Shown in pieces: positions 1,023 to 31,970 of a stretch of 64,000 bases of DNA. The position numbers were made by a program, and so were the translations under genes. This DNA is from a virus, in IMG/VR virus record IMGVR_UViG_3300032294_002710, positions 70,853 to 134,852 of that record. One strand, written 5' to 3'. The notes below the pieces were generated by a model. That model had not been told where the DNA came from. It was given only the letters and a program-made list of their open reading frames with translations, and did no database searches. Within the stretch, counting starts at the first letter, position 1; each line of letters opens with the position of its first letter.

Positions 1023-1468
1023 TAACAACTTACATTTGTAAAAAAGGTGATATTGGTGTGCATGACAATATGTTTGGTGGTACATTAATGTCACTAATTG
1101 ATGATGCTGCGGCTTCTTATGCGGCTCAAATATGTGATACACCAAGAATTGTTACTATTAAAATTGATGAATTAGTTTTTAAAAGACCAGTTAAGGTCGG
1201 TAGTTTAATTAAAATCTATGGAAAGGTTGTAGAGTTTGGTAGAACTTCTGTTTCTTTATATATCGAGGTTAGGAAACATAATGTTTATACTGGAGAACAA
1301 GAAGTTGTGACACATACAAATATAAAATTTGTTCGCATAGACGAAGAAGGAAATTCTATTCCTATTTCTGAAAGAGTTAAGGTTAGATATTCTGATAGAG
1401 TTAAACAATTTGGTAAAGGACTTATTTCAAATGAAGAAAAAAATTGTTTAAATGAAATCACAAATTAA
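1013..1468 (+). CDS. Acyl-CoA thioesterase (hotdog fold)
   Basis: HDNMFGGTLMSLIDDAA, VTIKIDELVFKRPV, GRTS motifs. Confidence 0.85.
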   Translation: MELITTYICKKGDIGVHDNMFGGTLMSLIDDAAASYAAQICDTPRIVTIKIDELVFKRPVKVGSLIKIYGKVVEFGRTSVSLYIEVRKHNVYTGEQEVVTHTNIKFVRIDEEGNSIPISERVKVRYSDRVKQFGKGLISNEEKNCLNEITN

Positions 1469-1658
1469 TAAAAAAAATGTTCAAAATATTGGTGAACATT
1501 ATGGATTAGATATTGAGGCAGAATTAACATCAATGCTATCTGATGAATTGGCTAAATCAATAGATGCTGAAATTATGAAGAATCTATTTGGTAGTGATAA
1601 GAAGAAGGATAAAATTAATAGAATATTAGAAAAAATTAAAAAATTTGAAAATGATTAA
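1452..1658 (+). CDS. Mini-protein resembling an internal fragment of T4 gp23-like major capsid protein plus C-terminal KKDKINRILEKI helix
   Basis: HYGLDIEAELTSMLSDELAKSIDAEIM resembles recalled gp23 VHGMDADAELSGILATEIMLEINREVV. Confidence 0.6.
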   Translation: MKSQINKKNVQNIGEHYGLDIEAELTSMLSDELAKSIDAEIMKNLFGSDKKKDKINRILEKIKKFEND

Positions 1659-2481
1659 AGCTGATAAGTATTATATAAATAATCTTGTAAATATTATGAG
1701 TGGGGGATCTTTTGATGAGAATCCAAGACCAAAATGGTCGGATGGTATCTCAGCACACTCAAAATTTATCACACAAGTATTTGAAGAGTATGATATATCT
1801 AAAGGTGAATTTCCAATTACTACACTGAGAAATACAGCTATTAAAACCGGAATTAAAGAAGTTCTTTGGATTTATCAGAAACAAACCAGTTCATTAAAAG
1901 TGGCTCGTGAGATGGGTATTAATTGGTGGGATGAGTGGAATATAGGTGATGATACTATCGGTCAACGATATGGCGCTACAATTCAAAGATATGACTTAAT
2001 GAATAAGTTATTAAAAAGTCTTAAAGAAGATCCGTTTTCTAGAAGACATATTATTAATATGTATCAAGAGTCTGATATGAACGAGACAAAAGGATTACAT
2101 CCTTGTGCATTTGAGACCCTATGGTCTGTTAGAAAAATTGATGGTAATTTTTATCTTGATTTAACTCTTAATCAAAGAAGTAATGATTATATAATGGCTG
2201 GATATATAAATAAGATACAATATGTTGCCTTACAAATGATGGTCGCTTCTCATTTAGGATATAAACCAGGTAAATTCTGTCACTTTGTTCAGAATTTACA
2301 CATTTATGATAGACATTTTGAGGCGGCTAATGAGATATTAGATAGGAGATCAACAAATAAACAACCAAGTATATCATTAAAATCAGATAAGAACTTCTAT
2401 GATTTTACAATAGAAGACTTTGAAATACATAATACAGATGGTATTAAAAAGCTAAGTTTTGATTTAGAAATAGCTGTTTAA
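1651..2481 (+). CDS. thyA: Thymidylate synthase
   Basis: SRRHI, LHPCAF, QRSND, NLHIYDRH motifs; ATG at 1651. Confidence 0.95.
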   Translation: MIKADKYYINNLVNIMSGGSFDENPRPKWSDGISAHSKFITQVFEEYDISKGEFPITTLRNTAIKTGIKEVLWIYQKQTSSLKVAREMGINWWDEWNIGDDTIGQRYGATIQRYDLMNKLLKSLKEDPFSRRHIINMYQESDMNETKGLHPCAFETLWSVRKIDGNFYLDLTLNQRSNDYIMAGYINKIQYVALQMMVASHLGYKPGKFCHFVQNLHIYDRHFEAANEILDRRSTNKQPSISLKSDKNFYDFTIEDFEIHNTDGIKKLSFDLEIAV

Positions 2482-2499
2482 AAAAATTAATAAAACAAT

Positions 2500-2991
2500 A
2501 TGCAAGAAGAATTAGACCCAATTTATGAACTTATAGTTTCACAGGTTAAAAATATAGACCGTGATGATTTAACAGATGATGTTGATCAAGGTCCAAAATC
2601 TAATCAAGTTGAAAAACAAATGGTTTATATCTGGATTAGGCTTTATATAAAAGAAGAATTGTCTGATATAAAAGAAGGTGATGACTTTAGTATTAAGTAT
2701 TTACCATCTGGTGAGAAATTGATGACAAAGTTTATTTGTTTCGGAAAAAAGAACTCATTTAAAGATGCTGAAGACTTCAATCAAATTCAAATTACAACTG
2801 AGGATGATACTAAATGTTTGTGTTTAATGGTTAATGAAGATGAAATTCAAACTGGTGAACATATTCCATTTATTAGATCGCTATTTAAAGTTTCAAAACA
2901 CTTTGAATATCAAGTTTATTTGAGAGAAGAATTGGAATTTAAAAACGAGAGAACTGGTCAATCTGTTGAATATATTGATTGTGATTTCTAA
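2500..2991 (+). CDS. Hypothetical protein
   Basis: 163-aa ORF, operon-like position. Confidence 0.7.
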   Translation: MQEELDPIYELIVSQVKNIDRDDLTDDVDQGPKSNQVEKQMVYIWIRLYIKEELSDIKEGDDFSIKYLPSGEKLMTKFICFGKKNSFKDAEDFNQIQITTEDDTKCLCLMVNEDEIQTGEHIPFIRSLFKVSKHFEYQVYLREELEFKNERTGQSVEYIDCDF

Positions 2992-3030
2992 TTACAGAGT
3001 ATAGATTGAAGAAAAAATAAATCAATTTTT

Positions 3031-3225
3031 ATGATACAATGTAAAATAAAAGAACTTAAAGAAATTAACAAATTGATTGACCTGAGAAGCTCAAGTGATA
3101 TATCAATTGAAAGTCATAAGGAAAAAAGAGACCAATTGATTTCTGAACTTGAAGAGGAGTTGATGAAATTAAATGACTTTGATAACTGGAAAGAATGGAA
3201 AAACTTTCAAATTTTTGATTTTTAG
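3031..3225 (+). CDS. Hypothetical protein
   Basis: 64-aa ORF. Confidence 0.55.
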   Translation: MIQCKIKELKEINKLIDLRSSSDISIESHKEKRDQLISELEEELMKLNDFDNWKEWKNFQIFDF

Positions 3226-3632
3226 TCTCTAAAAACAAAAACAAATCTTGATGTTCCTATTCCGAATGATTGTAAATATTGATTTCCGTAGGCTGTTAAT
3301 AATTCACAATTAAATTCGGATTGAAATCTTTTTAATAAATCTTCACAATCTTGATTAAATTCATACAATGTTGTATAGAAGTCATTTGGTCCAGATAGGT
3401 CGCAGTGTATTATTAAATTGACATCTTTAATGTTTTTAATATGCTTTCCTATATTTATCCTACTATGATAGTCTCTAACGTTATAAGATTTAATAAACGA
3501 GTATCTAATATCGTTTGAATCTATTGAGTTTTCAACCATATCCCATTTATCAACAAGATCTTGAAATATATCTTTTATTTCTTCGATGTTTGGATTATTT
3601 GAGAAACTTTCAAATTTTGAAATAATATACAT
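3222..3632 (-). CDS. Hypothetical protein with capsid-targeting-like N-terminus
   Basis: MYIISKFESF; TATATA motif upstream. Confidence 0.7.
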   Translation of the reverse strand: MYIISKFESFSNNPNIEEIKDIFQDLVDKWDMVENSIDSNDIRYSFIKSYNVRDYHSRINIGKHIKNIKDVNLIIHCDLSGPNDFYTTLYEFNQDCEDLLKRFQSEFNCELLTAYGNQYLQSFGIGTSRFVFVFRD

Positions 3633-3660
3633 GACATATATATAAAATTAAAAAGCAAAC

Positions 3661-5202
3661 GTGTTAGTAGATACTCAATATTTAATAAATCATAGAAAAC
3701 TAGTTGTTAGTTATGTTGATAAGTCAGGTGATATTAAGTTAAAATATTTTGATTGGCAAACTCCTCTTAAATATGTAACTTGTGAGGATAACGATCCCCA
3801 GAGACATCCAGATTATAAATCTTGGGATGGAAAGCATGTTAAGCAGATAGAGGTAAATCATCCAGATCGATATGCAGTTTATGAATTTCTTGATGCTCTT
3901 CCAGAAAAAGAGAAAGAGGAAATTTTTGAATTTAATCTTCCTAAGATATTTTTTATAGATATCGAGACTGAGATAATTGATGGATTTCCAGAGGCTGCTG
4001 ATATAAAAGATGCCGCTGGAAATGTTATTAAAGAAGGTGCCTCTACACAAGTTTTATCTATATCTATTGTTTATGACGATAAAATAATTCTTTTGGGGTT
4101 GAAAGATATGCCTCAAGATATGCAGGATCGTATAATAAACAATAGTAATAAATATTTTGAAAAGTCAAAAGTTGAATACAAATTCAAATATGTTAGATAT
4201 GAAAGTGAATTTGATATGATGTATGACTTTTTTCATAAGATGGTTCCAAAAATGCCACTTATAACCGGTTGGAACTTCTTAAACTATGACTGGTTATACT
4301 TAGTAAATAGATCTAGAAAGATATCAAAATGGGTAAATGGAAAAGAGATAAAAATAGACCCAGCCGTTTCATCTCCAACTAAAAGATTAAATAAAGTTTG
4401 GTCAACTGATTATGAAGTTCCAGCTCATAGAATGATATTCGACTACATGCAACTGTATGAAATTTGTGACACATCTATTAAGGTTAAAGAAAGCTCATCA
4501 TTGGATTTTGTTTCAAATAAGTTAGTTGGTGTGGATAAAATTAAATATTCCGGCTCTCTCCAAAAACTTTATGAAGACGACTTTGAAACTTTTATGTATT
4601 ATAACGCTGTTGACTCCGTTTTGGTGCAAAAGATACATGAAGCCAGAAATTATATTTCTATTATTTTCGCTATTTCTGCCCTTGCTAGAATTCGTGTTGT
4701 AGATATTGTGTCTCAGATGAATAATGCTCTTGGTTCACTTGCTATCACTGAAGGTGTGCTCAGAAATAGATTCCGAGATATGGAAAACATTATCTTATTT
4801 AAAGACGAAAATGCTGTTCGTGGTGGTGAATCAGGAATTGCTGGTGGTTGGGTAAAAGATCCAGTTGTTGGTATGAATAAGTGGTGTGTTATTTATGACT
4901 TTGCCTCACTTTATCCTACAACTCAACTTCAGTTCTTTATCGCACCAGAAACATTTGTTGGTGTTAAAACTGAACAAGAAGCTGACTACTGTTTCAATGG
5001 TAATCAGAGAATTAAAATTGATTTAGATAAACACGTTGTCTGTGTAAATGGTGTTGTCTTCGAGAAGAGATATTCACCAACACTGAAGATGTTGGATGAT
5101 GTCTACGCTGACCGTAAAAAGAATAAGAAAATCATGATGGCTAAAAAAGAAGAGTATAAAGCTGTTATGGATGAAATAAAAAAATTAGAAGCCGAATTAT
5201 AA
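3661..5202 (+). CDS. Family B DNA polymerase, N-terminal part (exonuclease + motif A); split gene
   Basis: DIETE, GWNFLNYDW, YNAVD exonuclease motifs; YDFASLYP motif A; ends before motifs B and C. Confidence 0.9.
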   Translation: MLVDTQYLINHRKLVVSYVDKSGDIKLKYFDWQTPLKYVTCEDNDPQRHPDYKSWDGKHVKQIEVNHPDRYAVYEFLDALPEKEKEEIFEFNLPKIFFIDIETEIIDGFPEAADIKDAAGNVIKEGASTQVLSISIVYDDKIILLGLKDMPQDMQDRIINNSNKYFEKSKVEYKFKYVRYESEFDMMYDFFHKMVPKMPLITGWNFLNYDWLYLVNRSRKISKWVNGKEIKIDPAVSSPTKRLNKVWSTDYEVPAHRMIFDYMQLYEICDTSIKVKESSSLDFVSNKLVGVDKIKYSGSLQKLYEDDFETFMYYNAVDSVLVQKIHEARNYISIIFAISALARIRVVDIVSQMNNALGSLAITEGVLRNRFRDMENIILFKDENAVRGGESGIAGGWVKDPVVGMNKWCVIYDFASLYPTTQLQFFIAPETFVGVKTEQEADYCFNGNQRIKIDLDKHVVCVNGVVFEKRYSPTLKMLDDVYADRKKNKKIMMAKKEEYKAVMDEIKKLEAEL

Positions 5203-5206
5203 TTCG

Positions 5207-5214
5207 TATATTTG
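5207..5214 (+). promoter_or_regulatory. Bacteroidota-type -7 promoter element
   Basis: TATATTTG (TAnnTTTG) 6 nt before the helicase ATG. Confidence 0.55.
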
Positions 5215-5220
5215 TAAAAT

Positions 5221-6888
5221 ATGTCACTAAAAAAAGATTTACTTAAATATCAGCCTCGCAAAGAGCAACAAGAATGTATCGATTTTATCGATTCTGAATA
5301 TAAAAAGAATAAGGAAAATAAATTCTTCCTTCTTAATCTACCGGTGGGTACTGGAAAATCACACTTAGCATTGATGATTGCTGATTGGTATTTGAAAAAT
5401 GTCAATGGTAATGCTAAATTTGACGTTATTACAAATAGTAAGATTCTTCAAGATCAATATGTAGAGACATATGATTCTATTAACGATTTAAAAGGTAAAG
5501 AAAATTATGAGTGTGCTCAGTATTCTTGTTCTTGTGCACAAGGTAATGAATTTAATAGACTAAATAAGTCAAGTTGTGAATTTTGTCCACATTCATCTGC
5601 TAGAGATGGATATGTATCAGGTAGAATGTCTTTGACCAATTTTTATCTTTACATTCTTTTCCAACTCTATATGACAAAAATGATGGACGCTAGAGGTGGT
5701 AATGTATTGATAGTAGATGAAGCACATGATTTTGATGATGTGATGTCTGATTTCATCACGATTAAAATAACAGAAACGGTTGTTAAGAGATTAAAGTTCT
5801 CTAATGAAGATAAGATTATAAAAGAACTTAAAAAAATCACTACTATTAGTGGTTATATTGATTTTCTAAAAGAGCTGCAAGGTGAGATTGCCACCACTAT
5901 ATCAGATGTTGAGAGAACACTGAATGCTGAGAAGAGAAATGTTAAGTCGGTTAAAAGAGAAAATGCTGTTAATAAGGTCTTGGGTGGTAAGAACTCAGAT
6001 ATTAAGTTAATGCAAGTTATTACAGATCTACAACAATATCAGTCTAAAATTGAAATTTTCTTAAATGAGTATAAGGCAAATCCTAATAATTGGGTATTAG
6101 AGTCAAATTATAATGAAAAGACTAAACAGAAGGAACTATCATTAGAACCAATTTGGGCGTTTGACTACCTTGATAAGTATGTTTTCTCTAAGTATGATAT
6201 GGTATTTCTAATGTCTGGAACTATTTTAGATAAAAGTCTATTTTGTCAACTTAATGGTTTAGATGTTGAAAAGGCTGTTTATTACTCAATTGAATCTCCT
6301 TTCCCTGTTAAAAATAGACCAATATACTATATGCCATTAGGAAAGATGTCATATAAATCGAAAGAAGAGACTTTTAAAAACTATGTTCCCTTTCTTCAGA
6401 AGATATTGAATAAATATCCTGATAAGAAAGGTATAATTCATAGTAACTCTTTTGAACTAGCCAGTTGGATTGCTCGTGATGTTAAAGATCCAAGATTGGT
6501 ATATCACGACTCTTCTAATAAAGATTTAGTTCTACAAGAACATTACGCTACTGACAAACCAACTGTTATAGTATCTCCGAGTATGGATACAGGCGTGAGT
6601 TTTGATGATGATAAGGCTAGATTTCAAGTGATTGCTAAAATTCCTTATCCAAGTTTGGCTTCTCAAAAGAATAAATTAAGACAGAAGAATAACCCAGAGT
6701 GGTATACTTGGAAAACAATTTCTGGACTTATTCAAATGACAGGAAGAGCAGTTAGATCAAGTGAGGATTATGCTGATACTATTATAATTGATGGATCTTT
6801 TTCAGACCTATTGAAATACTCTGGTCAATATTTTCCACATTGGTTTCAAGAGGCGATTAAAAAGGTTAATGTTAAGATTAATGTCTAA
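5221..6888 (+). CDS. DinG/XPD-like SF2 helicase
   Basis: PRKEQ Q-motif, PVGTGKS, DEAH, MSGT, Cys cluster, QMTGRAVRS. Confidence 0.9.
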   Translation: MSLKKDLLKYQPRKEQQECIDFIDSEYKKNKENKFFLLNLPVGTGKSHLALMIADWYLKNVNGNAKFDVITNSKILQDQYVETYDSINDLKGKENYECAQYSCSCAQGNEFNRLNKSSCEFCPHSSARDGYVSGRMSLTNFYLYILFQLYMTKMMDARGGNVLIVDEAHDFDDVMSDFITIKITETVVKRLKFSNEDKIIKELKKITTISGYIDFLKELQGEIATTISDVERTLNAEKRNVKSVKRENAVNKVLGGKNSDIKLMQVITDLQQYQSKIEIFLNEYKANPNNWVLESNYNEKTKQKELSLEPIWAFDYLDKYVFSKYDMVFLMSGTILDKSLFCQLNGLDVEKAVYYSIESPFPVKNRPIYYMPLGKMSYKSKEETFKNYVPFLQKILNKYPDKKGIIHSNSFELASWIARDVKDPRLVYHDSSNKDLVLQEHYATDKPTVIVSPSMDTGVSFDDDKARFQVIAKIPYPSLASQKNKLRQKNNPEWYTWKTISGLIQMTGRAVRSSEDYADTIIIDGSFSDLLKYSGQYFPHWFQEAIKKVNVKINV

Positions 6889-7618
6889 GTGATTTAAATA
6901 TAGTCACACATTTTTCAATAGCTTCTATACCTTTTTGGTCAAATTTAAATTGTTTAGATTTAGCACTTTCAACTAAATTTGAGTCTTGATATTTTGATTT
7001 TTCACTATCAGGTATTGACCATAAATTCACAACAGCCCATTCATCCTGAGACATTACTATTGCTGATAGTTCTTTTTTATGTGTGGATATAAAATCATCT
7101 AATGATCCTTTTTCAAAGGTTATTGTAAATCCTGCTGGAATACTTCCTTGTTGTTCTTTATTGATGTCTAATTTTAGAATTGTTCTTAAATTTCGATATT
7201 CACTACTATTTTCAATACTGGGTATCATAGATTCAGTGTCCCACTCATAAAACTGTAGACCTAAAACTTTTTCTACATACTCTTTAAACTCTTCAAATGA
7301 CTTTACATCTTTATTAGATGGTGCCTCATTATCTCTGAATTTTAACATAAATTGACAATAGTGCTTACCATCCAATATACCCATATAAACATGTAGTTTA
7401 TCATTTATAGATTCATATCCAATTGATGTCATTCTATTATTCAATTCAATAACATCTTTCATGAATTGAATTCTATCTGTTTCAAATATTCTACCTGTTA
7501 TTGTTATAAATCCTTGAAATACATCAGAATCCATTTCATATCCTGAATCTTTAAGGTCTAATAAAAGGTCATCAATTTCTTGTTTAGAAAGTGACTCATT
7601 GAATTTTATAATTCTCAT
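6878..7618 (-). CDS. Hypothetical protein with capsid-targeting-like N-terminus
   Basis: MRIIKFNES; AATATATA upstream. Confidence 0.7.
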   Translation of the reverse strand: MRIIKFNESLSKQEIDDLLLDLKDSGYEMDSDVFQGFITITGRIFETDRIQFMKDVIELNNRMTSIGYESINDKLHVYMGILDGKHYCQFMLKFRDNEAPSNKDVKSFEEFKEYVEKVLGLQFYEWDTESMIPSIENSSEYRNLRTILKLDINKEQQGSIPAGFTITFEKGSLDDFISTHKKELSAIVMSQDEWAVVNLWSIPDSEKSKYQDSNLVESAKSKQFKFDQKGIEAIEKCVTIFKSLRH

Positions 7619-7637
7619 AGAGTATATATTAAAACAA

Positions 7638-7663: not shown

Positions 7664-7666
7664 GAT

Positions 7667-15010: not shown

Positions 15011-17329
15011 ATGCAAGAAATGATATCGAAAGATGTTAAAAGATCCACTCGTAGCAATGAGTTGAGTGTCAAGAAGAGAAATGGTCAAACTGAAGTTTTT
15101 GAAGCTGAAAAAATTAATAAAGTATTAATTTGGGCAACATCAGGAATAAGTGGTGTTTCCGCATCTGATGTGGCGATGAATTCACATCTACAATTCTATC
15201 CAGGAATAAAGACATCTGAAATACACAAAGTCTTGATTCAATCAGCAGTTGATTTGATTTCAGACAAAAATCCAAACTATCAATATGTTGCTTCAAATCT
15301 ATTGAATTACTTACTTCGTAAAGAAGTTTTTGAAACAAAGAAGGAACTACCTTCTCTATTTGAATGTATTAATAGAAATATTAAAGTGGATTTATATGAC
15401 TCTTTGATACTTGATAAGTACACTCAAGAAGAAATTGCTAAGTGTGATTCGTATATCAAACATGAAAGAGATTATGATTTGACATATGCTGGTCTTCAAC
15501 AATTGATTGATAAATATCTTGTTAAAGATAGAAGCACCGGTAAATCTTATGAGACTCCACAGTTTTGTTTTATGATGATTGCTATGACTGTTTTTGCAGA
15601 TTATGATAAATCTACAAGAATGGATTTTGTAAAAGAATTATATGATATGATTTCTGAACATAAGATTTCTTTACCAACACCAATTATGGCTGGTATTAGA
15701 ACACCAAATCGTCAGTTTTCAAGTTGTACACTAATCGAAGTTGGTGATTCATTAGATTCTATATTTCATGGTAATGTTGCAATTGGTCAGTATGTTGCTA
15801 AAAGAGCTGGTATTGGAATTAATGCTGGTCAAATTAGAGCACTTGGCTCAAAGGTTCGTAATGGTGAAGTAGTACACACTGGGGTTATTCCATTTTTTAA
15901 GATGTTTCAATCAACTTTACACTCTTGTTCCCAAGGTGGTATTCGCAAAGGGTCGGCAACTCTTTATTTTCCTTGGTGGCATAAAGAAATCGAGGATGTT
16001 CTTGTATTGAAAAACAATAAAGGCACTGACGATAATCGTGTAAGACACATGGACTATGGAATTCAATTTGAGAAAACTTTTTACAGTCGATTTATTTCAA
16101 ATGGTGATATTGCACTTTTTTCACCTTCTGATGTTCCTGGACTTTATGATGTATTTGGTCTCCCAGAATTTGAAGAGCTATATTTAAAATATGAGGCAGA
16201 TAAAAAAATCCCTAAGACGATTATTAAAGCGAGAGATTTAATGAACTCTTTTGCACAAGAAAGAATCGGAACTGGTCGTATGTATGTTATGAACATAGAT
16301 AACGCTAATACTAATTCACCTTTTATTGAAAGATTGAAAATGTCTAACTTGTGTGTTGAAATTGTTTTACCAACAGCACCAGTTGAAAATATCTATGATA
16401 TCGATAATAAGAAAGAAACCGAACAATACTCAGATGCTGAGATTGCACTCTGTACATTAGCTGCCTTTAACTTGGGTAATATTAAATCCTGGGCAGAACT
16501 TCATAGAGTTGCTGAGTATATTGTTAGAATTCTTGAATATGTAATCGAGAATCAAGATTATCCAATTAATGCGGCTAAGAAAATGTTAAAGCGTCGATCA
16601 GTTGGAGTCGGTGTAACAAACTTTGCATATTGGTTAGCGAAACAAGGAGTTAAATATTCTGATAAAGAAGCACTTTTCTATGTTGATGAGTTGTTTGAAA
16701 ACATTCAGTATTCGTTATTGAAAGCTTCAAATAAATTGGCACAAGAACTTGGAAAATGTGAGTGGTATGATAAGACTACATATTCTCAAGGTGTTTTACC
16801 AATTGATCGTTATAATAAAAATGTTGATGAGTTAGTTAAGAGAGATTACTCTTGTGATTGGGACACATTAAGAAAGGACATTGAAGAATTTGGTTTAAGA
16901 AATTCTGTATTAACAGCTATTATGCCAGCAGAATCTTCAGCAGTTGTTCAAAATGCTACTAATGGAATTGAACCAATTCGTTCACTTGTTATCACTAAGA
17001 AGTCTAAATCTGGACTTGTTAAACAAGTAGCACCTGAATGTATTAAGTTGAAGAATAAGTATGAGATGGCATTTGAAATGCCGGATAATCGTGGATATAC
17101 TAATATCTGTGCTATTATTCAAAAGTGGATCGATCAATCTATATCAGCTAATCATTACTATCAATATTCATCAGATGGTATTTCAATCGGTGGTGTTATT
17201 AAAGATGTGTTATACGCTTATAAGTACGGATTGAAAACATTGTATTACGCTAATACAGATGATAAAAAGACAGACGATCTTTCTCAAATGGGTATGGATG
17301 GTTGTGAATCAGGAGCTTGTTCGATATGA
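15011..17329 (+). CDS. nrdA: Ribonucleotide reductase class Ia alpha subunit
   Basis: ATP cone VKKRNG, SSC, SNLCVEI, LKTLYY, C-terminal CESGAC. Confidence 0.97.
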   Translation: MQEMISKDVKRSTRSNELSVKKRNGQTEVFEAEKINKVLIWATSGISGVSASDVAMNSHLQFYPGIKTSEIHKVLIQSAVDLISDKNPNYQYVASNLLNYLLRKEVFETKKELPSLFECINRNIKVDLYDSLILDKYTQEEIAKCDSYIKHERDYDLTYAGLQQLIDKYLVKDRSTGKSYETPQFCFMMIAMTVFADYDKSTRMDFVKELYDMISEHKISLPTPIMAGIRTPNRQFSSCTLIEVGDSLDSIFHGNVAIGQYVAKRAGIGINAGQIRALGSKVRNGEVVHTGVIPFFKMFQSTLHSCSQGGIRKGSATLYFPWWHKEIEDVLVLKNNKGTDDNRVRHMDYGIQFEKTFYSRFISNGDIALFSPSDVPGLYDVFGLPEFEELYLKYEADKKIPKTIIKARDLMNSFAQERIGTGRMYVMNIDNANTNSPFIERLKMSNLCVEIVLPTAPVENIYDIDNKKETEQYSDAEIALCTLAAFNLGNIKSWAELHRVAEYIVRILEYVIENQDYPINAAKKMLKRRSVGVGVTNFAYWLAKQGVKYSDKEALFYVDELFENIQYSLLKASNKLAQELGKCEWYDKTTYSQGVLPIDRYNKNVDELVKRDYSCDWDTLRKDIEEFGLRNSVLTAIMPAESSAVVQNATNGIEPIRSLVITKKSKSGLVKQVAPECIKLKNKYEMAFEMPDNRGYTNICAIIQKWIDQSISANHYYQYSSDGISIGGVIKDVLYAYKYGLKTLYYANTDDKKTDDLSQMGMDGCESGACSI

Positions 17330-17610
17330 TAAACTGGATTAAAAACTTATTTAAAAGGAAAGAGGAACCAATTGATCCTCTTTCTCCAAACAATTGGTCA
17401 GTTAGTAGAACTAATGGTAGAGTTATTTATAAAATACCAGTTGGTGACCTGAATCCGAAATATGCTCAAAAAACATTAAAAGAATTAATGAATAAATATA
17501 ACGCCCAGATGCCGATTTCAACCAATTACTGGTTTCCAAGTCCTGATATGACTAAAGCTGAAAAGATTGAAAGAATTTTGAATAAAATTCAACCTAAAGA
17601 GGAAAATTAA
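17326..17610 (+). CDS. Mini-protein resembling a T4 gp20-like portal fragment plus C-terminal KAEKIERILNKI helix
   Basis: SRTNGRVIYKIPVGDLNPKYAQKTLKELMNKY..NYWFP resembles recalled gp20 [35 protein letters not shown]; ATGA overlap with nrdA. Confidence 0.55.
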   Translation: MINWIKNLFKRKEEPIDPLSPNNWSVSRTNGRVIYKIPVGDLNPKYAQKTLKELMNKYNAQMPISTNYWFPSPDMTKAEKIERILNKIQPKEEN

Positions 17611-24987: not shown

Positions 24988-24997
24988 GTTTTTAATT

Positions 24998-26131
24998 TTA
25001 ATTTTCTTCTAGAAATAAATAAATAGTGTCACAAAAATCTTCAATTTTTACCTCATCTGATAAGTTATTTGGGTGAAGCATGTGAATTTTTATTAAATCT
25101 TTTTTAATATCGTATTTAATATTTATTATATAATGTTCTCCTCTGTAATTTATATCAAATAAGTAAAAATAGTTTCCTTGATGTTGCCAAACAACATCGA
25201 TATTGTATTCTTTTAGTCTATTAAACTGGTTATATAGTTCTTTTAACCTATTAGATTCTTCATTTGAAAGTATTGGGAATACTTTTTCCCTAATCATATT
25301 AATAAATCTCTCAGCTTCTTTATTAGAATCTAAATCTAAATCTAAATCAAAAGTTAAATCTAAAGAATTTATCTTTTTTTCAATTTCTTTTAACTTGGAC
25401 ATTATATCCCATTTTGTTGGATGTAAGTTCTTTTTAATCCAGTCTTTTATATTTAAATCTGATTTGTGTTTACCTTCTGGTTTGTCTAAGTCTAAATCTT
25501 GTATCCATCTACCATTTAGATCTCTTGAACTATTGAAGAAAAAACTTGTTGATATTTTATAATTTAAATTATTTGATACAATCTTATCTCTGTTTAACTT
25601 TAAGTTTATTCCAAATTTACTAGAATATTCTCTTAACCAAATTGTTAATGATTTTTTATTATCAAAGTCATCTGTTGTTAAGTCTATTACTGATGTGTAT
25701 TCATTATCTTTTATTTCATAAATCTCATTTTCTATTGAGTATTCAAATTCATTTATTGATTCCAATATCGAATATTCATCTATATTACAAATTACAAATT
25801 CATTTATTGGGAAAAATTGTAAAGCCACGCATTTTATATTCTCATCAAACTCTTGGGATAGTGTCGAGTTTATTCTTGGTGATATATTATCAAATGTTTC
25901 TTTATCCATTCTTTGATTAAATGCTACAAGATAGCTTCTAAATTCTAAGTCACTTGACCATTCACTTCTTTCCAAGTCGTGACAAGTTATTTCACAATCA
26001 CTAATTGTAATTACAGATTTATGTACATGTACATTTACAGACTCATCTATTTCAGATAGAAATGTATCGTTTACTATATCTCTAACAAAGTTAAGTTCGT
26101 TATAGTCTTTAAATTCTAATAGAAGCTTCAT
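24998..26131 (-). CDS. Hypothetical protein
   Basis: MKLLLEFKDYNE start; TATATA upstream. Confidence 0.7.
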   Translation of the reverse strand: MKLLLEFKDYNELNFVRDIVNDTFLSEIDESVNVHVHKSVITISDCEITCHDLERSEWSSDLEFRSYLVAFNQRMDKETFDNISPRINSTLSQEFDENIKCVALQFFPINEFVICNIDEYSILESINEFEYSIENEIYEIKDNEYTSVIDLTTDDFDNKKSLTIWLREYSSKFGINLKLNRDKIVSNNLNYKISTSFFFNSSRDLNGRWIQDLDLDKPEGKHKSDLNIKDWIKKNLHPTKWDIMSKLKEIEKKINSLDLTFDLDLDLDSNKEAERFINMIREKVFPILSNEESNRLKELYNQFNRLKEYNIDVVWQHQGNYFYLFDINYRGEHYIINIKYDIKKDLIKIHMLHPNNLSDEVKIEDFCDTIYLFLEEN

Positions 26132-26165
26132 GTTAGAGTATATATAATTAAAATTAAATTTATAA

Positions 26166-26867
26166 GTGTTAATTTTAGATGATTGTTTTAATTATTTAAG
26201 TAAAATTGAAGATAATTCAATAGACTTAATACTTACAGATCCACCATATGATATTTCAAAGAAGTCTGGATTTAGTTCTGGTAAGCTATCTAAATTTAAT
26301 CAAATATCAATAGACTTTGGATATTGGGACACTGAAATAGATTTAGATAAATTATTTAGAGAATATTATAGAGTTCTAAGAAAAGGAGGAACATTAGTTT
26401 TATTTTATGATATTTGGAAGTCTGCTATGATTAAAGAATTTGCAATTAAATATAAATTTAAACAACCAAGAATAGGACAATGGTTAAAGAATAATCCTGT
26501 TCCTGTTAATTCAAAGATAAATTACTTATCAAATTGTTCAGAATATTTTTTCACTTTTGTTAAGGACAAAAATCCCACTTTTAACTCTGAGTATGATAAC
26601 GGTATTTATAATTTTCCTCTTTGTCATGGTAAAGAAAGGTTGGAACATCCTACTCAAAAACCATTGGGACTTATTAAAAATTTAATAATGAAACATTCAA
26701 ATACTGGTGACTTGGTATTAGATACTTTTAGTGGAACTGGTACAACAGCTGAGGCCTGTTTAGAAACAGAGAGAAGGTATATTTGTATTGAAAGAGATGA
26801 GAATTATTATCAATTATCAAAATTGAGAATAGATTCAATAAAACAAACGAAAATACCAGAAATATAA
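26166..26867 (+). CDS. DNA amino-methyltransferase (N6A/N4C, beta class), no adjacent endonuclease
   Basis: TDPPY, HPTQKP, DTFSGTGTT. Confidence 0.92.
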   Translation: MLILDDCFNYLSKIEDNSIDLILTDPPYDISKKSGFSSGKLSKFNQISIDFGYWDTEIDLDKLFREYYRVLRKGGTLVLFYDIWKSAMIKEFAIKYKFKQPRIGQWLKNNPVPVNSKINYLSNCSEYFFTFVKDKNPTFNSEYDNGIYNFPLCHGKERLEHPTQKPLGLIKNLIMKHSNTGDLVLDTFSGTGTTAEACLETERRYICIERDENYYQLSKLRIDSIKQTKIPEI

Positions 26868-26882
26868 AAATAAAAAAAAGTT

Positions 26883-27296
26883 ATGTCTTTTATTGTTAAA
26901 AACTCACAATTATCTAATGACTCCTTACAAGCATTGAATGAATTAATTGAAAAAGATATTAGTGCTAAACATGCATTTAAAATATTAAGAATTATTAAAC
27001 ATATAAGTTCTATTGTTGAAGATAGAGTTAAGATGGAGAAAAAAATATTTGATAAATGGGTTCAGAGAGATGAGAATGGTAATCCAGTTTTGGCAAAGGA
27101 TGATAATGGTGAGTTTATTTCCGGTGCTGTGGTGATAACTAATGTTGATGAATTTAGCAAAGAAATGTCTGAGTTATTAAATATTGAAAATGAAGTACCT
27201 TTTGATAAAATTGACTTTGAAGAATTAGGACTTGATACTATAAAAATAAAAGATCTTATTAAGATTGACTTCTTATTTAAGGATTCTGAAAACTAA
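26883..27296 (+). CDS. Hypothetical protein
   Basis: 137-aa ORF; AAAC-N18-TATAAA upstream. Confidence 0.7.
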   Translation: MSFIVKNSQLSNDSLQALNELIEKDISAKHAFKILRIIKHISSIVEDRVKMEKKIFDKWVQRDENGNPVLAKDDNGEFISGAVVITNVDEFSKEMSELLNIENEVPFDKIDFEELGLDTIKIKDLIKIDFLFKDSEN

Positions 27297-27623
27297 TATA
27301 AAATCACCTAATCTATTAACACATACGGATTGCCTTTTTAAATAAGCTTCACAAATATCCATCCATCTTTTTTTATCGATTCTATCATTATTATTAAATT
27401 GTAAAAATATATCATGGATTTCTGGTTTTTCATTGGTATAAATTCTAACTATATCTCTTATGTCGTTTAGAACACTAAATAGATTTACCTTTTCCTTGTT
27501 TTCAGTTTCACGATCTAGAGAAAATGCACAGTGGTGCCATAAAAATTTCTCTATTTTAATTGATAGTTGTTCACCACCCTCGTCAATTAAAAAATAATTT
27601 TCATTTATTCTTTTGAAACTCAT
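27273..27623 (-). CDS. Hypothetical protein
   Basis: MSFKRINE start. Confidence 0.6.
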   Translation of the reverse strand: MSFKRINENYFLIDEGGEQLSIKIEKFLWHHCAFSLDRETENKEKVNLFSVLNDIRDIVRIYTNEKPEIHDIFLQFNNNDRIDKKRWMDICEAYLKRQSVCVNRLGDFILVFRILK

Positions 27624-27673
27624 TTTGACGGTATATTATTTTTAATATATATACTAAAATTCATTCTTTGTAA

Positions 27674-29224
27674 ATGGCAATAGCAACCTTTAGTGAGGGT
27701 ACCGGTGTAACAGAAGCTATAAGTAAAAATACTATTAGTGATGTTTTATCATTGTTACCAGATAATACAGTCAAGGAAATAACACCAAGAGATGTGAGAG
27801 ATGCTGTTCTATCTACTTGGGAAAATTCAGTAATTAGATATACTACAGATGGTAGTACTGATTACATTGGTATAGATAGACAAGGCATAAAAGATATTAA
27901 ATTGTTCTTAGGTAAGAAACAAATGTCTGGAAATAATATAATGTCATCAACTTTACTTGGAAGTGACACTGACATATTCCTCTATAATACTAAATCCGAT
28001 TCAGCAATCACTCAAGATTTTAAACTCTCTATATTAGCTGGAACATCGTCAGCTATATTTACATCAGCTCCTTACATTAAAGGTACATTTGTATCGGGTG
28101 TTCAAGAATACATATCATTAGATATAGTAAATCCGGCAGTTTATGGTACTATCAATATTGAAAGTGGATCTTCAGCGAGTGTTACTATCAATAATTTAAT
28201 TTTTCCATCACAGGGATATATTGATTATGTGACATTGAATCCAGGTGTTGCATCTGCATCAACAAATACTGACCTATTTTTGGCGGTAAGTCCTGGTAAT
28301 AATACTGTTGAACTAAAAACATATCAATCCAGTGGTGGTGTTTTAGGTAATGTTTCATTGCCTACAAACATTTATGGTAGTATGGTTTATGTTAATGGTG
28401 ATCCATTAACTTTTACAAATACCACACCAACTGGAGCAACAGTTGGTGGTATACAGTTCGGATCTACATTTAATAATGTTTCAATTGTTGATATGTTAAG
28501 TCAACTATTATATCCATATCTTCCACCTTCTGCAAAGATTTCTATATCAGGTTTGAGTTTTAATGACACTTTTGAAAGAGATCATTCATCTGGATATACT
28601 GTTAATTATACATATACACTTACAAAAACTACTGATAATATAGTTTCTACTTCATTGAGACTAATTAGACAGTCAACTGTTATTGCTTCAATATCTGGTG
28701 CTGCTCTTTCAGGAACAGGATTGGTTAGTCAAACATATACAGGTGCATATACTATTGATGGAACAACAGTGGCTGGTGGTGGAACATCTATAAGAAACTA
28801 TTATACTTTTTCTTGTACACCATTTGATGGTACATCATATGGAACTGCCTCTACATTATTTGAGGGTGTTTTTCCATATTTTTACGGATTCTCAACAACA
28901 AATACTGATTCTCAAATAACTTTAAATGGTACTGTTCTACCAGCATTGACTAAGAGAGTTGATGCGAAAATTGGATTAACACTATCATTGGCAGGAACGG
29001 GCTATTTATACTTTTGTTATCCAGCTATATATGGAACTTTATCAAATATAAAAGATGGAAATGATTATATAGAATATACAGATGGATTAAGTGGTGCTTG
29101 GACATACTCTAATACTAATTTGAATAGTCCTTCTGGCAAATGGTCTGCCGTTCCTTACTATATCTATCGAAAGTATTTGGCATCTACTATACCACCTTCA
29201 CAAAATTATAAATTTAATTTCTAA
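27674..29224 (+). CDS. Virion structural protein (tail/fibre-like)
   Basis: Ser/Thr/Gly-rich beta-type sequence; YLYFCYPAIYG motif; AATATATA upstream. Confidence 0.7.
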   Translation: MAIATFSEGTGVTEAISKNTISDVLSLLPDNTVKEITPRDVRDAVLSTWENSVIRYTTDGSTDYIGIDRQGIKDIKLFLGKKQMSGNNIMSSTLLGSDTDIFLYNTKSDSAITQDFKLSILAGTSSAIFTSAPYIKGTFVSGVQEYISLDIVNPAVYGTINIESGSSASVTINNLIFPSQGYIDYVTLNPGVASASTNTDLFLAVSPGNNTVELKTYQSSGGVLGNVSLPTNIYGSMVYVNGDPLTFTNTTPTGATVGGIQFGSTFNNVSIVDMLSQLLYPYLPPSAKISISGLSFNDTFERDHSSGYTVNYTYTLTKTTDNIVSTSLRLIRQSTVIASISGAALSGTGLVSQTYTGAYTIDGTTVAGGGTSIRNYYTFSCTPFDGTSYGTASTLFEGVFPYFYGFSTTNTDSQITLNGTVLPALTKRVDAKIGLTLSLAGTGYLYFCYPAIYGTLSNIKDGNDYIEYTDGLSGAWTYSNTNLNSPSGKWSAVPYYIYRKYLASTIPPSQNYKFNF

Positions 29225-29226
29225 AT

Positions 29227-30744
29227 ATGGCTATTAATATACAAGAACAATTTAATGTTAATATAGGTCTTCCAATCGACTCAAGAATAGTTGCCAGTGG
29301 TTCAACTGCTAGAAATGCTATAACTTATAAATATGATGGATTAGTTGTCTATGATACTAGTGATAGGAAGACATATGTGTGGAATGCTAATAATAGTAGT
29401 TGGACTTTAACAGATATAAGTGGTGCTGGTACTACTAATGCTCTACCTAAATGGTCCTCCTCTACTGGGTTGACATCTTCTGGTGTTTACATGATTGCAT
29501 CCTCTGGCGTTAATGGAAGGGTAGGTATAAATACAGCTACGCCAAATGAAGTTTTACAAATAAATTCTATAAGTGGTGGATCACAACCATTTGTTATCCA
29601 CAAAGGAAGTTTTAATAACATTATTGGTAGCAACTGGTATAATACTGGTTCAGACGCCTTTTTTTCAGGAACTGATGGATCAGCTATAGTTAAATTTAGA
29701 CCAAATGGTGAAATTGTTATCCACAACAGAGCCAATTCTAATTTTGTACCTTTAAACTCAGCAGACTCATTTAACTCTTTTACAAGTTTATCCATAGGTC
29801 CAGATCGTATAGGTTTACATAGAAATACATATTTTAGTAATAATGGATTAACTATAACATCTGCTGCATACATAAGAGCATTAAATAATTTCTCTACAAA
29901 AACTACACCTGACTACACCTGGTGGAATGATGACATGACTGGTATTTACCACCCATCAGATAATAAAATTGGATTCTCAGTGGAAGGTGAGCAAAAGGCT
30001 TTAATAACAATTAACGGGTTGGCAATAACTGCAACTGATAATGTAACATCACCATCTTCAAGAATACATGTTGATAGTGGAAATTCTGTTGGTAGTAATA
30101 TACAATTCACTGCTGGAACACTAACTGGAGTTGGTTCATCACAGGGTGTATTATTTGGAATTGGTTCAAATGGTGCAGCTGTTTTTCAATCTAGGTTTAA
30201 TAATAGTCCATACCTTTTTGTATTTACTAGTGGTAATAGTCATCACGCTATAAGAAGAAATAAGTTTGTAACATATTCTGGAAGTAATGGTGAGAATTCA
30301 GCATCTGTTTTTGCCGCAAGCGGTGGATCAGGATCTAGAAGTGAGAGAATTAGTTGGGAATGGGTAGCTGGAAGTTTAGGTGGATCTACCACAACCACAA
30401 CAATTTATAATTTGGATATACCAAATGATTCAGTTGTTTCAATTGAGGCCACATTTAACACATCAATTGATCCCAATTCTGGATCTAATCAGTATAAAAC
30501 TCAGAAAGTAATTGCCTTGTTAAGATGTGACTCATCTGGTAATGTTATTAATATATCAAGTTCTACATCATTTACTTTAAATAGTAGTTCATCTACAGGT
30601 ATAGGATCTGTTGCTGTACAAGCATCTGCGTCACAAAACCTTATCGAGTTTAGACAAACCCACGGATCGGGTATTTCATCTTCATATACCGTGTGGTCTA
30701 TTTTAGATATAGTTGCAGTATTTAATGTGAATGTTGGTAGTTAA
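29227..30744 (+). CDS. Tail-fibre-like virion protein
   Basis: PIDSR..YDGLVVYD, GRVGINTATP repeat-type motif, Gly/Ser-rich. Confidence 0.7.
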   Translation: MAINIQEQFNVNIGLPIDSRIVASGSTARNAITYKYDGLVVYDTSDRKTYVWNANNSSWTLTDISGAGTTNALPKWSSSTGLTSSGVYMIASSGVNGRVGINTATPNEVLQINSISGGSQPFVIHKGSFNNIIGSNWYNTGSDAFFSGTDGSAIVKFRPNGEIVIHNRANSNFVPLNSADSFNSFTSLSIGPDRIGLHRNTYFSNNGLTITSAAYIRALNNFSTKTTPDYTWWNDDMTGIYHPSDNKIGFSVEGEQKALITINGLAITATDNVTSPSSRIHVDSGNSVGSNIQFTAGTLTGVGSSQGVLFGIGSNGAAVFQSRFNNSPYLFVFTSGNSHHAIRRNKFVTYSGSNGENSASVFAASGGSGSRSERISWEWVAGSLGGSTTTTTIYNLDIPNDSVVSIEATFNTSIDPNSGSNQYKTQKVIALLRCDSSGNVINISSSTSFTLNSSSSTGIGSVAVQASASQNLIEFRQTHGSGISSSYTVWSILDIVAVFNVNVGS

Positions 30745-31430
30745 TCATTAACGGATTCAAACCACCAATTGAAGTAAATAAAATTATCACCTGTTAGTGT
30801 GTATTGGTCATTATCATATTCAAATATTATCTTATCATTATAAGATTTTAATACTTCAATGATTGAGTTTTTTGGTAAAATAACAAGTTTTCCTGTTTTG
30901 TTTGAGTAGCAATTTACTTCTTCTTTTAATAGTTTAAACTTACCAAATTGTGGTTTTAACCAATTTAATATTTGCTTAATGATTAATCCTTTGGTCTTTA
31001 TGATCCACTCTTTTGTTTGAAGTAATGTATGATCTCTAAATACTTCAGATTTTACTTCAGGTGAGTTTAATATATCTTTTACCACACCCCAGTATTCATC
31101 TTCCTCTTCAGCTTTTAATTTGAAAGATATATACACATCGTATTTTAAGGATGTTGATTTTACAATTTTAATAATTTTTAAAGATGATAGTTCTTGTTCT
31201 TCTAATCCTAATTTAGATTTTATTGATTGGTAAGTTCCTGAGTTTTGTAGTGATTTAGATAATACTCCTAATTTTGATATTGCATTTCTAACGATATCAT
31301 CATGTTTATCAAACGCATTAATTGATAATTGTGGATCATCAACATGTATTGATGCCTGTACTGAATCGGGATTTAATCTTTGAAGGTTAAATTCAGTAAA
31401 TTCAAGTATTAGATGTTTTGGTCTTTTCAT
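30741..31430 (-). CDS. Hypothetical protein
   Basis: 229-aa ORF; KHLILEFTEF. Confidence 0.7.
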   Translation of the reverse strand: MKRPKHLILEFTEFNLQRLNPDSVQASIHVDDPQLSINAFDKHDDIVRNAISKLGVLSKSLQNSGTYQSIKSKLGLEEQELSSLKIIKIVKSTSLKYDVYISFKLKAEEEDEYWGVVKDILNSPEVKSEVFRDHTLLQTKEWIIKTKGLIIKQILNWLKPQFGKFKLLKEEVNCYSNKTGKLVILPKNSIIEVLKSYNDKIIFEYDNDQYTLTGDNFIYFNWWFESVND

Positions 31431-31463
31431 ACTGAATATATATATTAAAATATAAAATTACTT

Positions 31464-31769
31464 ATGAGAATAAGAAAGTTTAATGAGAATGAAATTCAGA
31501 ATTTATCTAATGAGAGATGTGATGAAATAATTAATAATTTAACAGAATTAGCATCTAACATCAATCAAAAGAATGAAATGATTGATTCTCTTATTAATGA
31601 GTTAAATAATTTTATTAATAATTCTGATTCCAAAGTAGATCAAATTGATGACTCTGTTTCTAATTTACAACAAATACGCGGTTATTTTTCTGACTCAATT
31701 GATAAAATTGATAATGTTGTAAATTCTATAAAGGATTACAACAAATCAGGTAGAAAATACATATACTAA
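31464..31769 (+). CDS. Helical protein with capsid-targeting-like N-terminus
   Basis: MRIRKFNENE. Confidence 0.7.
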   Translation: MRIRKFNENEIQNLSNERCDEIINNLTELASNINQKNEMIDSLINELNNFINNSDSKVDQIDDSVSNLQQIRGYFSDSIDKIDNVVNSIKDYNKSGRKYIY

Positions 31770-31772
31770 TTA

Positions 31773-31970
31773 ATGAGTGATTTAATTGGTAAAAAAGGTG
31801 AAAATTTAGAACCGGGTTATGTATGGGCGCCTTATATAATGGTAACTGATATAGTTTCAAGTCCAGGTTTTCCAAGTGCTACAATGAGATCTCGATATAA
31901 AAATCCTAAAATAGAAAAGATAAAAAAAATCCTCGAAAAAATCGAGGATTCTAATTTTACTTCAAGTTAG
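31773..31970 (+). CDS. Mini-protein resembling the C-terminal segment of T4 gp23-like major capsid protein plus KIEKIKKILEKI helix
   Basis: IGKKGENLEPGYVWAPYIMV..MRSRY resembles recalled gp23 VGYKGPNEMDAGIYYAPYVAL..FKTRY. Confidence 0.65.
   Translation: MSDLIGKKGENLEPGYVWAPYIMVTDIVSSPGFPSATMRSRYKNPKIEKIKKILEKIEDSNFTSS

Follow-up and report, generated by a model that had tools for sequence, protein, structure and literature searches.

Three mini-proteins with capsid- and portal-like segments and a shared C-terminal helix as candidate mimics of phage head-assembly interfaces

MicroProteins, exemplified by plant LITTLE ZIPPER and animal Id proteins, are small, consist of one domain related to a larger protein, and act by entering non-productive complexes. 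Small proteins also act on phage heads: gp67 and gp68 are prohead core proteins of T4, and the capsid redirectors of satellites (P4 Sid, SaPI CpmB) bind the capsid protein of a helper phage and alter the outcome of assembly. Short amphipathic peptides at protein termini, among them the T4 capsid-targeting sequence, encapsulin cargo-loading peptides and microcompartment encapsulation peptides, address unrelated proteins to a shell, and those of encapsulins are C-terminal and bind a shell of the HK97 fold. Here we describe three mini-proteins, designated A, B and C, encoded in a 64,000-nucleotide stretch of viral DNA (IMG/VR record IMGVR_UViG_3300032294_002710, positions 70,853 to 134,852; hereafter the window), which is the final 64 kb of a 134,852-bp viral contig with a CheckV completeness of 24% and comes from a genome of about 30% GC. 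An initial annotation had likened A and C to two different segments of a T4 gp23-type major capsid protein and B to a segment of a gp20-type portal, and had noted that all three end in a common helix. Each is a small stand-alone homologue of one interaction segment. Like microProteins, they are short, correspond to an interaction segment of a larger protein and are encoded by separate genes, with competitive binding presumed; unlike microProteins, their parents are phage virion and replication proteins, one genome samples several of these parents, they share a C-terminal tag and their competitive binding is a prediction. A literature search, which was not exhaustive, found no description of mini-proteins made of capsid or portal fragments or of this tag, and database labels are at most partial ("Gp23 domain-containing").

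All three open reading frames (ORFs) are present and intact on the plus strand where they had been annotated. Mini-protein A (1452..1658; 68 amino acids (aa)) consists of the capsid short P-domain helix and spine helix followed by the tail helix; B (17326..17610; 94 aa) has a conserved N-terminal stretch of 16 aa, a portal-like middle and the tail helix; and C (31773..31970; 65 aa) joins a C-terminal P-loop segment of the capsid protein to the tail helix. The longest frame of B opens at a TTG at 17317, and the ATG at 17326 is the start in 19 of 20 aligned homologues. The full-length gp23-type capsid protein (576 aa; contig 49315..51045) and portal (569 aa; contig 44428..46137) of the same phage are encoded upstream of the window. 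A split capsid gene complemented by A and C was considered and rejected, as the 576-aa capsid protein keeps both segments.

Comparison with gp23 and gp20 profiles and with the phage's own full-length genes, a check proposed with the initial annotation, returned matches for all three mini-proteins. The A body (residues 1-46; 1452..1589, +) matched Pfam Gp23 (PF07068) at model positions 160-197 of 376 (E 3.2e-5; 24.0 bits against a cut-off of 24.4) and the PHROG major head protein (E 7.6e-4). Profile-profile alignment with hhalign placed the A family (A 1-46) on residues 331-379 of the clade's capsid proteins (P 95.4%, E 1.9e-8), which corresponds to residues 331-379 of the phage's own capsid protein and to T4 gp23 residues ~267-312. 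Over its first 48 residues A is identical at 17/48 positions to the canonical T4-like capsid protein of an unrelated contig, whereas it shares 11-12 identities over 44-46 positions with the capsid proteins of its own clade, and so A appears more like canonical T4-type capsid proteins than like the phage's own. A structure predicted with AlphaFold2 (AF2) contains two helices, at residues 21-46 and 50-67, with a predicted local distance difference test score (pLDDT) of 82.8.

The portal-like body of B (residues 27-77 of the 97-aa frame; 17395..17547, +) corresponds to residues ~274-332 of the phage's own portal and ~283-342 of T4 gp20. B matched Pfam Portal_T4 (PF07230) at model positions 198-239 of 433 (E 1.8e-5), its 24.1 bits lying above the cut-off of 22.9, and many B homologues carry a precomputed PF07230 match. 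With hhalign, residues 36-63 of the B family aligned to residues 274-300 of the clade's portals (P 81.6%, E 1.1e-5); the part containing YWFP is weakly collinear with portal residues 318-341 (E 0.11), and both parts were joined in a single local alignment to the portal across a deletion. The C body (residues 4-44; 31782..31904, +) corresponds to residues 509-552 of the phage's own capsid protein and to T4 gp23 ~447-477, with hhalign placing C 5-44 on residues 510-552 of the clade's capsid proteins (P 87.8%, E 3.3e-6). C itself had no Pfam match; the C family profile matched the full-length capsid ORFs of two relatives (E 2.7e-4 and 5.1e-4), and the C orthologue in the complete relative W02 (LR745206.1; 634,780 bp) matched Pfam Gp23 308-356 (E 2.2e-4). 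A tblastn search of GenBank phages gave no match for B and only weak ones for C (E 0.2 or worse). Together, the Pfam and hhalign matches confirm the similarity initially reported. None of the three spans its parent: A (model positions 160-197) and the C orthologue (308-356) leave the HK97-type capsid fold incomplete, and B, covering 42/433 model positions, lacks the full wing-stem-clip-crown architecture of a portal.

The resemblance could in principle be fortuitous, with A, B and C being ordinary small helical proteins that look similar because of a composition rich in lysine and isoleucine. A GC content near 30% would favour such an outcome, the matches are short, C has no Pfam match and A falls 0.4 bits below its cut-off. 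Profile searches of the PDB likewise brought A to gp23/gp24 only at E ~0.9-1.2 and returned nothing relevant for B or C. We nonetheless regard chance as very unlikely, given that three independent profile-profile matches (E 1e-5 to 2e-8) are collinear and fall in the correct places, that the orthologues in W02 and in a second complete relative, W01 (LR756502.1; 642,428 bp), match the same Pfam positions, and that tail motif counts lie far above shuffled and reversed controls.

The middle of C, DIVSSPGFPSATM, is nearer to a protease-scaffold segment, DIVADPGFASAKM, encoded at contig 47089..49275 than to the aligned capsid stretch, and the C profile matched the protease ORFs of three relatives (E 0.002-0.004). 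Either C would be a chimera, or its capsid and protease-scaffold parents would share a motif. The gene in question lies directly upstream of the capsid gene and encodes a fusion of 707-728 aa (contig 47089..49275; W02 198546..200669), with a prohead-protease-like N-terminus, about 12 tandem acidic scaffold-like repeats of 14 residues and an acidic tract.

Closer inspection of the retained segments points to sites at which head proteins touch their partners. In T4, head-length mutations at A268, A275, D285 and D287 form one internal cluster of gp23, and the P-loop substitutions T457A, R460C and G461S form a second; both are situated close to the quasi-threefold axes, at which capsomers meet, and a third cluster is at the gp23 N-terminus (PMC9546572). 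Our T4 numbering reproduced the residue identities named in that study. A spans the 268-287 cluster, with its D20 aligned to D285 and its E22 to D287, and C spans the 457-461 cluster, so that both internal clusters are covered. The mini-proteins thereby cover the same gp23 segments in which the T4 (ptg) mutations alter head length via inter-capsomer contacts; the T4 data concern point mutations in full-length gp23, whereas A and C are separate fragment genes outside the head cluster. The B body maps between the two long stem helices of gp20, a position that makes it apparently the portal clip, with a residue range inferred from portal topology. The clip is described as exposed, and as the place where the packaging motor gp17 and the neck protein gp13 dock (PMC9958956). 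Collectively, these alignments support the view that the retained segments are interaction surfaces, namely capsid elements close to the quasi-threefold axes as well as, apparently, the portal clip.

The mini-proteins proved to be conserved. Counted as clusters at 90% identity, the A family comprises 113 (55-96% identity to the query; 41-93 aa), the B family 70 (54-89%; 73-106 aa) and the C family 35, one of which is the window's own (67-86%; 60-65 aa). All members are stand-alone small proteins, found on contigs of up to 642,751 bp; the reading frame is intact in every homologue seen, and both body and tail contain invariant residues. A broader A-like profile retrieved 661 clusters at 50% identity (E<=1e-3). 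The best 150 of these span lengths of 41-225 aa, with 120 of them not exceeding 100 aa, and most matches run through the spine helix and tail. The ESM Atlas holds 30 viral A-like clusters of at least 50 members (63-74 aa), with a Gp23 label on 34-40% of members. Two proteins, P0257 and P0325, join an A-like and a C-like segment in one chain.

The proposed measurement of selection was carried out for A and B as the ratio of nonsynonymous to synonymous substitution rates (dN/dS; Nei-Gojobori, IMG/VR loci). For A the median was 0.19 (6 sequences giving 14 pairs, some of which repeat because two sequences are identical), and for B it was 0.42 (35 pairs from 9 sequences, two identical), with a value of 0.21 for the B tail. 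A and the B tail are under purifying selection.

Some A-like proteins have no tail and instead start with M..FKFF.G; seven of the best 150 carried this N-terminal motif only, and two further cases were judged by eye. The set consists of P0242, P0267, P0274, P0286, P0288, P0291, P0292, P0341 and P0359, together with an ORF at 2899..3150 of locus L014. These proteins come from other phage lineages and retain the strand that precedes the spine helix. In P0267 and P0359 the FKFF motif recurs at the end, a sign of tandem copies or of gene calls that ran on. In B, the first 16 residues (MINWIKNLFKKKEEPI-like; 17326..17373) are near-invariant across the family, and a similar start, MINWLFRRKK, occurs on an unrelated tagged ORF of 52 aa in W02 (597888..598046). 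This near-invariant start may be a second, N-terminal signal.

The shared tails lie on the plus strand at A residues 50-67 (1599..1652), an AF2 helix in which I55 and I58 are near-invariant in 97 diverse homologues; at KAEKIERILNKI in B (17554..17589), where K83, I84, I87, L88, N89 and I91 are invariant in 21 sequences; and at PKIEKIKKILEKI in C (31905..31943), located by motif search and homologue alignment. In keeping with the common C-terminal motif initially reported, the pattern K.[DE]KI.[RK]IL[EN]KI and the looser KI..IL.KI occur only in A, B and C among the 754 contig ORFs of at least 30 aa (134.8 kb). Relaxing the tail pattern further gave four matches in the contig, three at the C-terminus, where shuffled sequences averaged 0.6. 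The tails differ synonymously in their codons (tail dS 0.5-0.9).

Beyond the three mini-proteins, the helix resembles a motif of much wider occurrence, for which statistics were gathered from the two complete relatives, both of which have A-, B- and C-like genes, and from the window's contig. In W02, [KR]K.[KS]I..I[FLY] occurs 16 times in 3711 ORFs, 14 of these within 12 residues of the C-terminus (reversed control 0, shuffled mean 0.95). With a broader regular expression, designed after seeing examples and scored in the last 22 residues of crude gene sets (ORFs not mostly covered by a longer ORF), 115/1025 genes of W02 (11.2%) and 92/1073 of W01 (8.6%) end in the tag, compared with 84/7797 (1.08%) and 75/7871 (0.95%) of internal windows; the corresponding counts for the window's contig are 9/190 genes and 19/1684 internal windows. 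The generic consensus is R-[D/N]-x-K-[I/L]-x-x-[I/L]-L, and the aligned logo, K-S-E-[I/L]-R-D-x-K-[I/L]-N-K-[I/L]-L followed by 0-2 residues, includes positions that the regular expression had left free. The tag lies 0-2 residues from the end in 69/115 W02 genes and 53/92 W01 genes, and in W02 it has R at a variably spaced position -4 in 96/115 and K at -8 in 36/115. It is most frequent on proteins of 61-120 aa (59/320 in W02).

Within this wider distribution the mini-proteins use a sub-variant, the longer KI..IL.KI in this contig and RK.KI..IF in W02. Codon use within the motif equals that of the genome, which places the signal at the protein level. Judged from these motif searches, the shared helix is both specific to the trio and a variant of a far wider C-terminal tag. 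The earlier idea of the helix as a common tag is supported: it is a variant of a motif that ends about 10% of the relatives' predicted proteins. It is not specific to capsid and portal fragments. Tag carriers overall are mostly ORFans, in W02 and W01 mostly of 61-250 aa. Pfam was run on four sets of 10 tagged W01 and W02 proteins; a set of 10 tiny tagged ORFs gave one weak Portal_T4 match only (E 0.048), and a set of 10 longer tagged proteins gave only a riboflavin kinase and a weak DUF4441 match. Elsewhere in the window, the generic tag occurs as RDDKINSIL plus 4 aa on a 78-aa ORF (45432..45668, +), as RESKLQELI at the very end of a 142-aa ORF (33808..34236, -) and in a tag-like form, RESNLDDLL plus 2 aa, on a 193-aa ORF (38523..39104, -).

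Several other sources or functions of the tail were considered. A recent DNA repeat or cassette end was rejected, given a mean column identity of 71% in AT-rich DNA, synonymous codon differences and the lack of a shared flank. Derivation from the portal stem helix that follows WFP is not supported, as the hhalign alignment of the C-terminal part of B stops just past WFP (E 0.11). For a clamp-binding tail, the sliding clamp families PF02916, PF09116, PF00712 and PF00705 were found in 0/4 genomes at E<=1; a divergent or host clamp leaves this function a slender chance. A link between the tag and an N-terminal capsid-targeting-like motif found no positive association in either relative.

Building on the established homology, conservation, tag, T4 mapping and genomic context, we tentatively favour a reading of A, B and C as tag-addressed competitive mimics of head-assembly interfaces, acting in conflict with other phages or in timing control. 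They would be real, translated accessory genes whose bodies each keep one short conserved contact element: the short P-domain helix and spine helix of the capsid protein in A, its P-loop segment in C and the portal clip in B. Each body is predicted to occupy the contact site of its parent segment, so that A and C would engage neighbouring capsomers at the quasi-threefold axes and B would contact the terminase or neck proteins. Because such a body could not propagate assembly, it would act like a competitive inhibitor of the microProtein type. The basic amphipathic C-terminal helix would be a specialised form of the clade-wide short linear tag, which may bring every tagged protein to a single hub, with the assembling prohead or the scaffold as the likeliest candidate. 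Capsid assembly and DNA packaging would thereby be modulated or blocked, and we favour an effect on relatives or satellites in the same cell, or a control of timing, over a building role. The genes sit in nucleotide-metabolism operons of an early type, at homing-endonuclease hot spots, and A is more like canonical T4-type capsid proteins than like the phage's own. The satellite redirectors offer a parallel as small capsid-acting proteins in genetic conflict, the setting proposed here for the mini-proteins; the redirectors are not capsid-derived, have no shared tag and are encoded by satellites, whereas the mini-proteins are encoded by the phage itself.

Further tagged fragments occur in the complete relatives. 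In W02 a tagged 61-aa ORF matched Gp23 132-163 (E 0.0057), a third Gp23 segment, and a tagged A-like ORF matched Gp23 164-194 (E 6e-4). An 83-aa ORF of the same genome (460435..460686, -) carries four of the 14-residue protease-scaffold repeats followed by the tag (E ~1e-37), and a 53-aa ORF contains a protease segment recognised by eye (A4 profile match, E 0.0035). Portal-like pieces in W02 include a permuted B-like ORF of 84 aa, a 50-aa ORF with D.WMP and a 51-aa ORF with a weak match to Portal_T4 385-425 (E 0.048). W01 has a C-like ORF of 61 aa (phmmer E 6.5e-6 to capsid proteins), a 58-aa ORF with DYWMP and a tail, and a 49-aa ORF with motif A of DNA polymerase B and a tail (Pfam model positions 58-91, E 1.3e-4, with 21.3 bits where the cut-off is 23). 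DNA polymerase B is itself apparently split: the window encodes a 513-aa protein (3661..5202) with the exonuclease domain and polymerase model positions 26-151, and relatives encode the remainder of the polymerase domain far away (W02 130634..131950(-) and 233919..234311).

Free-standing homing endonucleases of the T4 type, such as mobE between nrdA and nrdB and the seg genes, occupy intergenic sites that are instructive for the present loci. As previously annotated, two of the mini-genes lie within nucleotide-metabolism operons. A is flanked by genes for a 4HBT thioesterase and thymidylate synthase, overlapping 17 nt of the upstream thioesterase gene as well as the start of thyA, and B lies between NrdA and NrdB genes (Pfam), its ATG overlapping the nrdA stop codon as ATGA and its end falling 27 nt before nrdB. 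B holds this position in 8/8 IMG/VR loci, with one flank only where the locus ends. The nrdA and nrdB flanks are 83-99% identical to the window's proteins and B is 54-76% identical, a divergence 5-10 times faster than that of the flanks. In 6/8 loci, two of which (L101 and L102) are identical, extra genes occupy the nrdA-B or the B-nrdB gap. A GIY-YIG endonuclease gene stands beside B in L103 (PF01541, E 1.4e-4; 22.5 bits against a cut-off of 22.6), the gene immediately upstream of A in L008 is a SegE-like GIY-YIG gene (E 2.7e-7), and in W02 the B-like gene is followed by a T5orf172/MUG113 gene. A and B lie at homing-endonuclease hot spots. Like the T4-type loci, the same intergenic positions, between nrdA and nrdB and beside thyA, hold variable inserts; unlike their T4 occupants, none of A, B and C is an endonuclease, and they persist at sites that lack an endonuclease gene, as in this window. 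A keeps its thioesterase neighbour in 3/5 loci and thyA in 2/5, those two being identical. C starts 4 nt past an upstream ORF of 101 aa and overlaps, at its end, a DUF5856 gene that runs in the opposite direction; it keeps both neighbours in 6/6 loci checked, across deep divergence.

This setting brings in a neutral explanation, in which the mini-genes are by-products of break repair at homing endonuclease sites: short copies templated on strongly conserved genes would have been inserted in frame with a pre-existing 3' end that encodes the tag and would since have hitch-hiked with little or no function. The endonuclease genes directly beside A (L008), B (L103) and the B-like gene (W02), the variable insertions from nrdA through B to nrdB in 6/8 loci and the derivation of fragments from several unrelated essential genes are all consistent with it. 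Against it stand long-term conservation, in the 661 A-like clusters at 50% identity, the intact frames in every homologue seen, dN/dS well below 1 for A and for both tails, the invariant residues of body and tail and the constant neighbours of C. Break repair may explain how the genes arose and not why they are kept, and as a full account we consider it improbable.

Other features of these loci are recorded here. An ORF of 407-410 aa lies between nrdA and B in L097 (720..1952), L102 (729..1952) and L099 (1197..2383), where it is broken into three ORFs; it had no Pfam match, its C-terminal part resembles a PD-(D/E)XK or Vsr-type nuclease by eye, and the gene is probably a decaying mobile endonuclease. 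In the more distantly related L011, L012, L014, L015 and L016 an A-like gene (at about position 3000) comes directly after a conserved gene encoding 260-490 aa, and in L014 it stands among further large ORFs that likewise look glycosyltransferase-like by eye, unlike the thioesterase-thyA site of the window. The gene upstream of the thioesterase (213..1022) encodes a Fpg/Nei-type DNA glycosylase by sub-threshold matches to both domains, and in L008 only the first 63 codons of this gene remain (1834..2025), beside the inserted GIY-YIG gene. The 101-aa ORF upstream of C (31464..31769) has a capsid-targeting-like start, MRIRKFNENE, and a sub-threshold Pfam match of the coiled-coil type (24.2 bits against a cut-off of 29.1). 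Three RNA-library runs contained only 5-6% of sampled words, and contigs from such runs (mostly 95-99% alike, one 90-95% and one <90%) cover the nrdA 3' end, the B start and the B tail of relatives; as contigs in RNA libraries cannot show transcription, we draw no conclusion from them.

Short capsid segments can also matter to host immunity: the Gol peptide of T4 gp23 activates Lit. The Gol region presumably lies elsewhere in gp23 than the segments found in A and C. The phage protein DSAD1 competes with a structural protein for the DSR2 sensor (PMC11087589), and Avs proteins are reported to sense the capsid protein, the portal, DNA polymerase and other core proteins by their fold (10.64898/2026.01.04.697583; PMC13728456). 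DSAD1 and Gol likewise link competing phage proteins or short capsid segments to the sensing of structural proteins, with the difference that DSAD1, unlike the mini-proteins, is not a fragment of the protein that is sensed. On an alternative reading, the mini-proteins would antagonise the immune sensors of the host or serve as decoys for them: conserved epitopes of core proteins would fill a sensor, yet not set it off, ahead of the genuine proteins. The proteins from which the fragments derive (capsid, portal, DNA polymerase, protease and scaffold) overlap the "core phage proteome" reported to be sensed by Avs, and the early-type operons, the fast evolution of B between highly conserved flanks and the accessory positions at endonuclease hot spots all fit such a role. 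On the accounts just cited, Avs proteins recognise whole folds through extended interfaces that a piece of 30-45 residues would reproduce poorly, which argues against small pieces as good decoys. A bound fragment might, moreover, activate the sensor instead of blocking it, and the presence of the tag on about 10% of proteins is left unexplained. On balance we consider sensor antagonism rather unlikely.

A constructive role is also to be weighed, in which the mini-proteins are prohead components and the tag is a capsid- or scaffold-targeting peptide, the C-terminal counterpart of the T4 N-terminal sequence. As small core proteins at the quasi-threefold sites and the portal vertex, they would help to set the size or shape of a huge capsid, or assist packaging. 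The mini-proteins resemble gp67 and gp68 as small proteins that could act on head form. The tag resembles the known shell-address peptides in being a short terminal amphipathic peptide on many proteins, while having its own consensus and standing on ~9-11% of them; it is C-terminal, whereas the T4-type capsid-targeting sequence is N-terminal. In favour of this role, head proteins are the source of the majority of recognised fragments (three segments of capsid protein, portal pieces, protease and scaffold), the T4 head-length clusters fall within A and C, and P0257 and P0325 unite A-like and C-like segments. The M..FKFF.G start of the tail-less A homologues resembles the N-terminal capsid-targeting-like motif, which keeps a constructive role inside the prohead in play. 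In W01 this N-terminal motif and the tag are nearly exclusive (odds ratio 0.09, p 0.0013), as alternative signals would behave; in W02 the relation is not significant (odds ratio 0.62, p 0.36). A building role is harder to reconcile with genes that sit in nucleotide-metabolism operons far from the head module, with an A that is less like its own capsid protein than like canonical ones, with a divergence of B 5-10 times that of its flanks, which is unusual for a structural partner, and with a tag that is also found on a DNA polymerase fragment. Taken together, we hold this possibility to be rather unlikely as well.

The preferred interpretation as competitive interface mimics has to be set against several observations that speak against it. 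C scores closer to the capsid protein of its own clade than to canonical ones (65-67 versus 44), which fits self-interaction as well as an attack on others. The AF2 model of B is unreliable (pLDDT 52.6), and the portal-like middle of B is rich in insertions and deletions and evolves fast, with dN/dS up to ~1 in some pairs, so that any mimicry may be loose. The tag is also found on ORFans, a DUF6011 protein, a riboflavin kinase and the DNA polymerase B fragment; being generic, it says nothing specific about capsids, and the polymerase fragment derives from something other than a head protein. Only the most conserved stretches of a parent are recognisable by search, and the match to interfaces may therefore partly reflect detection bias. 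Lastly, early expression is suggested by the gene neighbourhood only.

A broader and more speculative proposal, to which we give little weight, is that the clade runs a peptide-mimicry arsenal: dozens of small proteins would each display the most conserved contact motif of a core protein (capsid, portal, prohead protease, scaffold or DNA polymerase) on a shared C-terminal tag, sabotaging competitors in their assembly and replication or blinding host sensors, and the tag would be a new sorting route for about a tenth of the proteome. Should the three mini-proteins indeed mimic interfaces, no earlier natural case would be known of microProtein-like factors that inhibit or modulate capsid assembly and DNA packaging in phages, and they would provide peptide probes for the contacts that govern capsid size and for the portal clip. 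If they are instead antagonists of sensors, they would show a phage hiding its "core proteome" from pattern-recognition immunity. In either case, the occurrence of the tag on 9-11% of predicted proteins in phages of 635-642 kb suggests that the largest known phages have an addressing system that has gone unrecognised, which may serve virion loading or a compartment.

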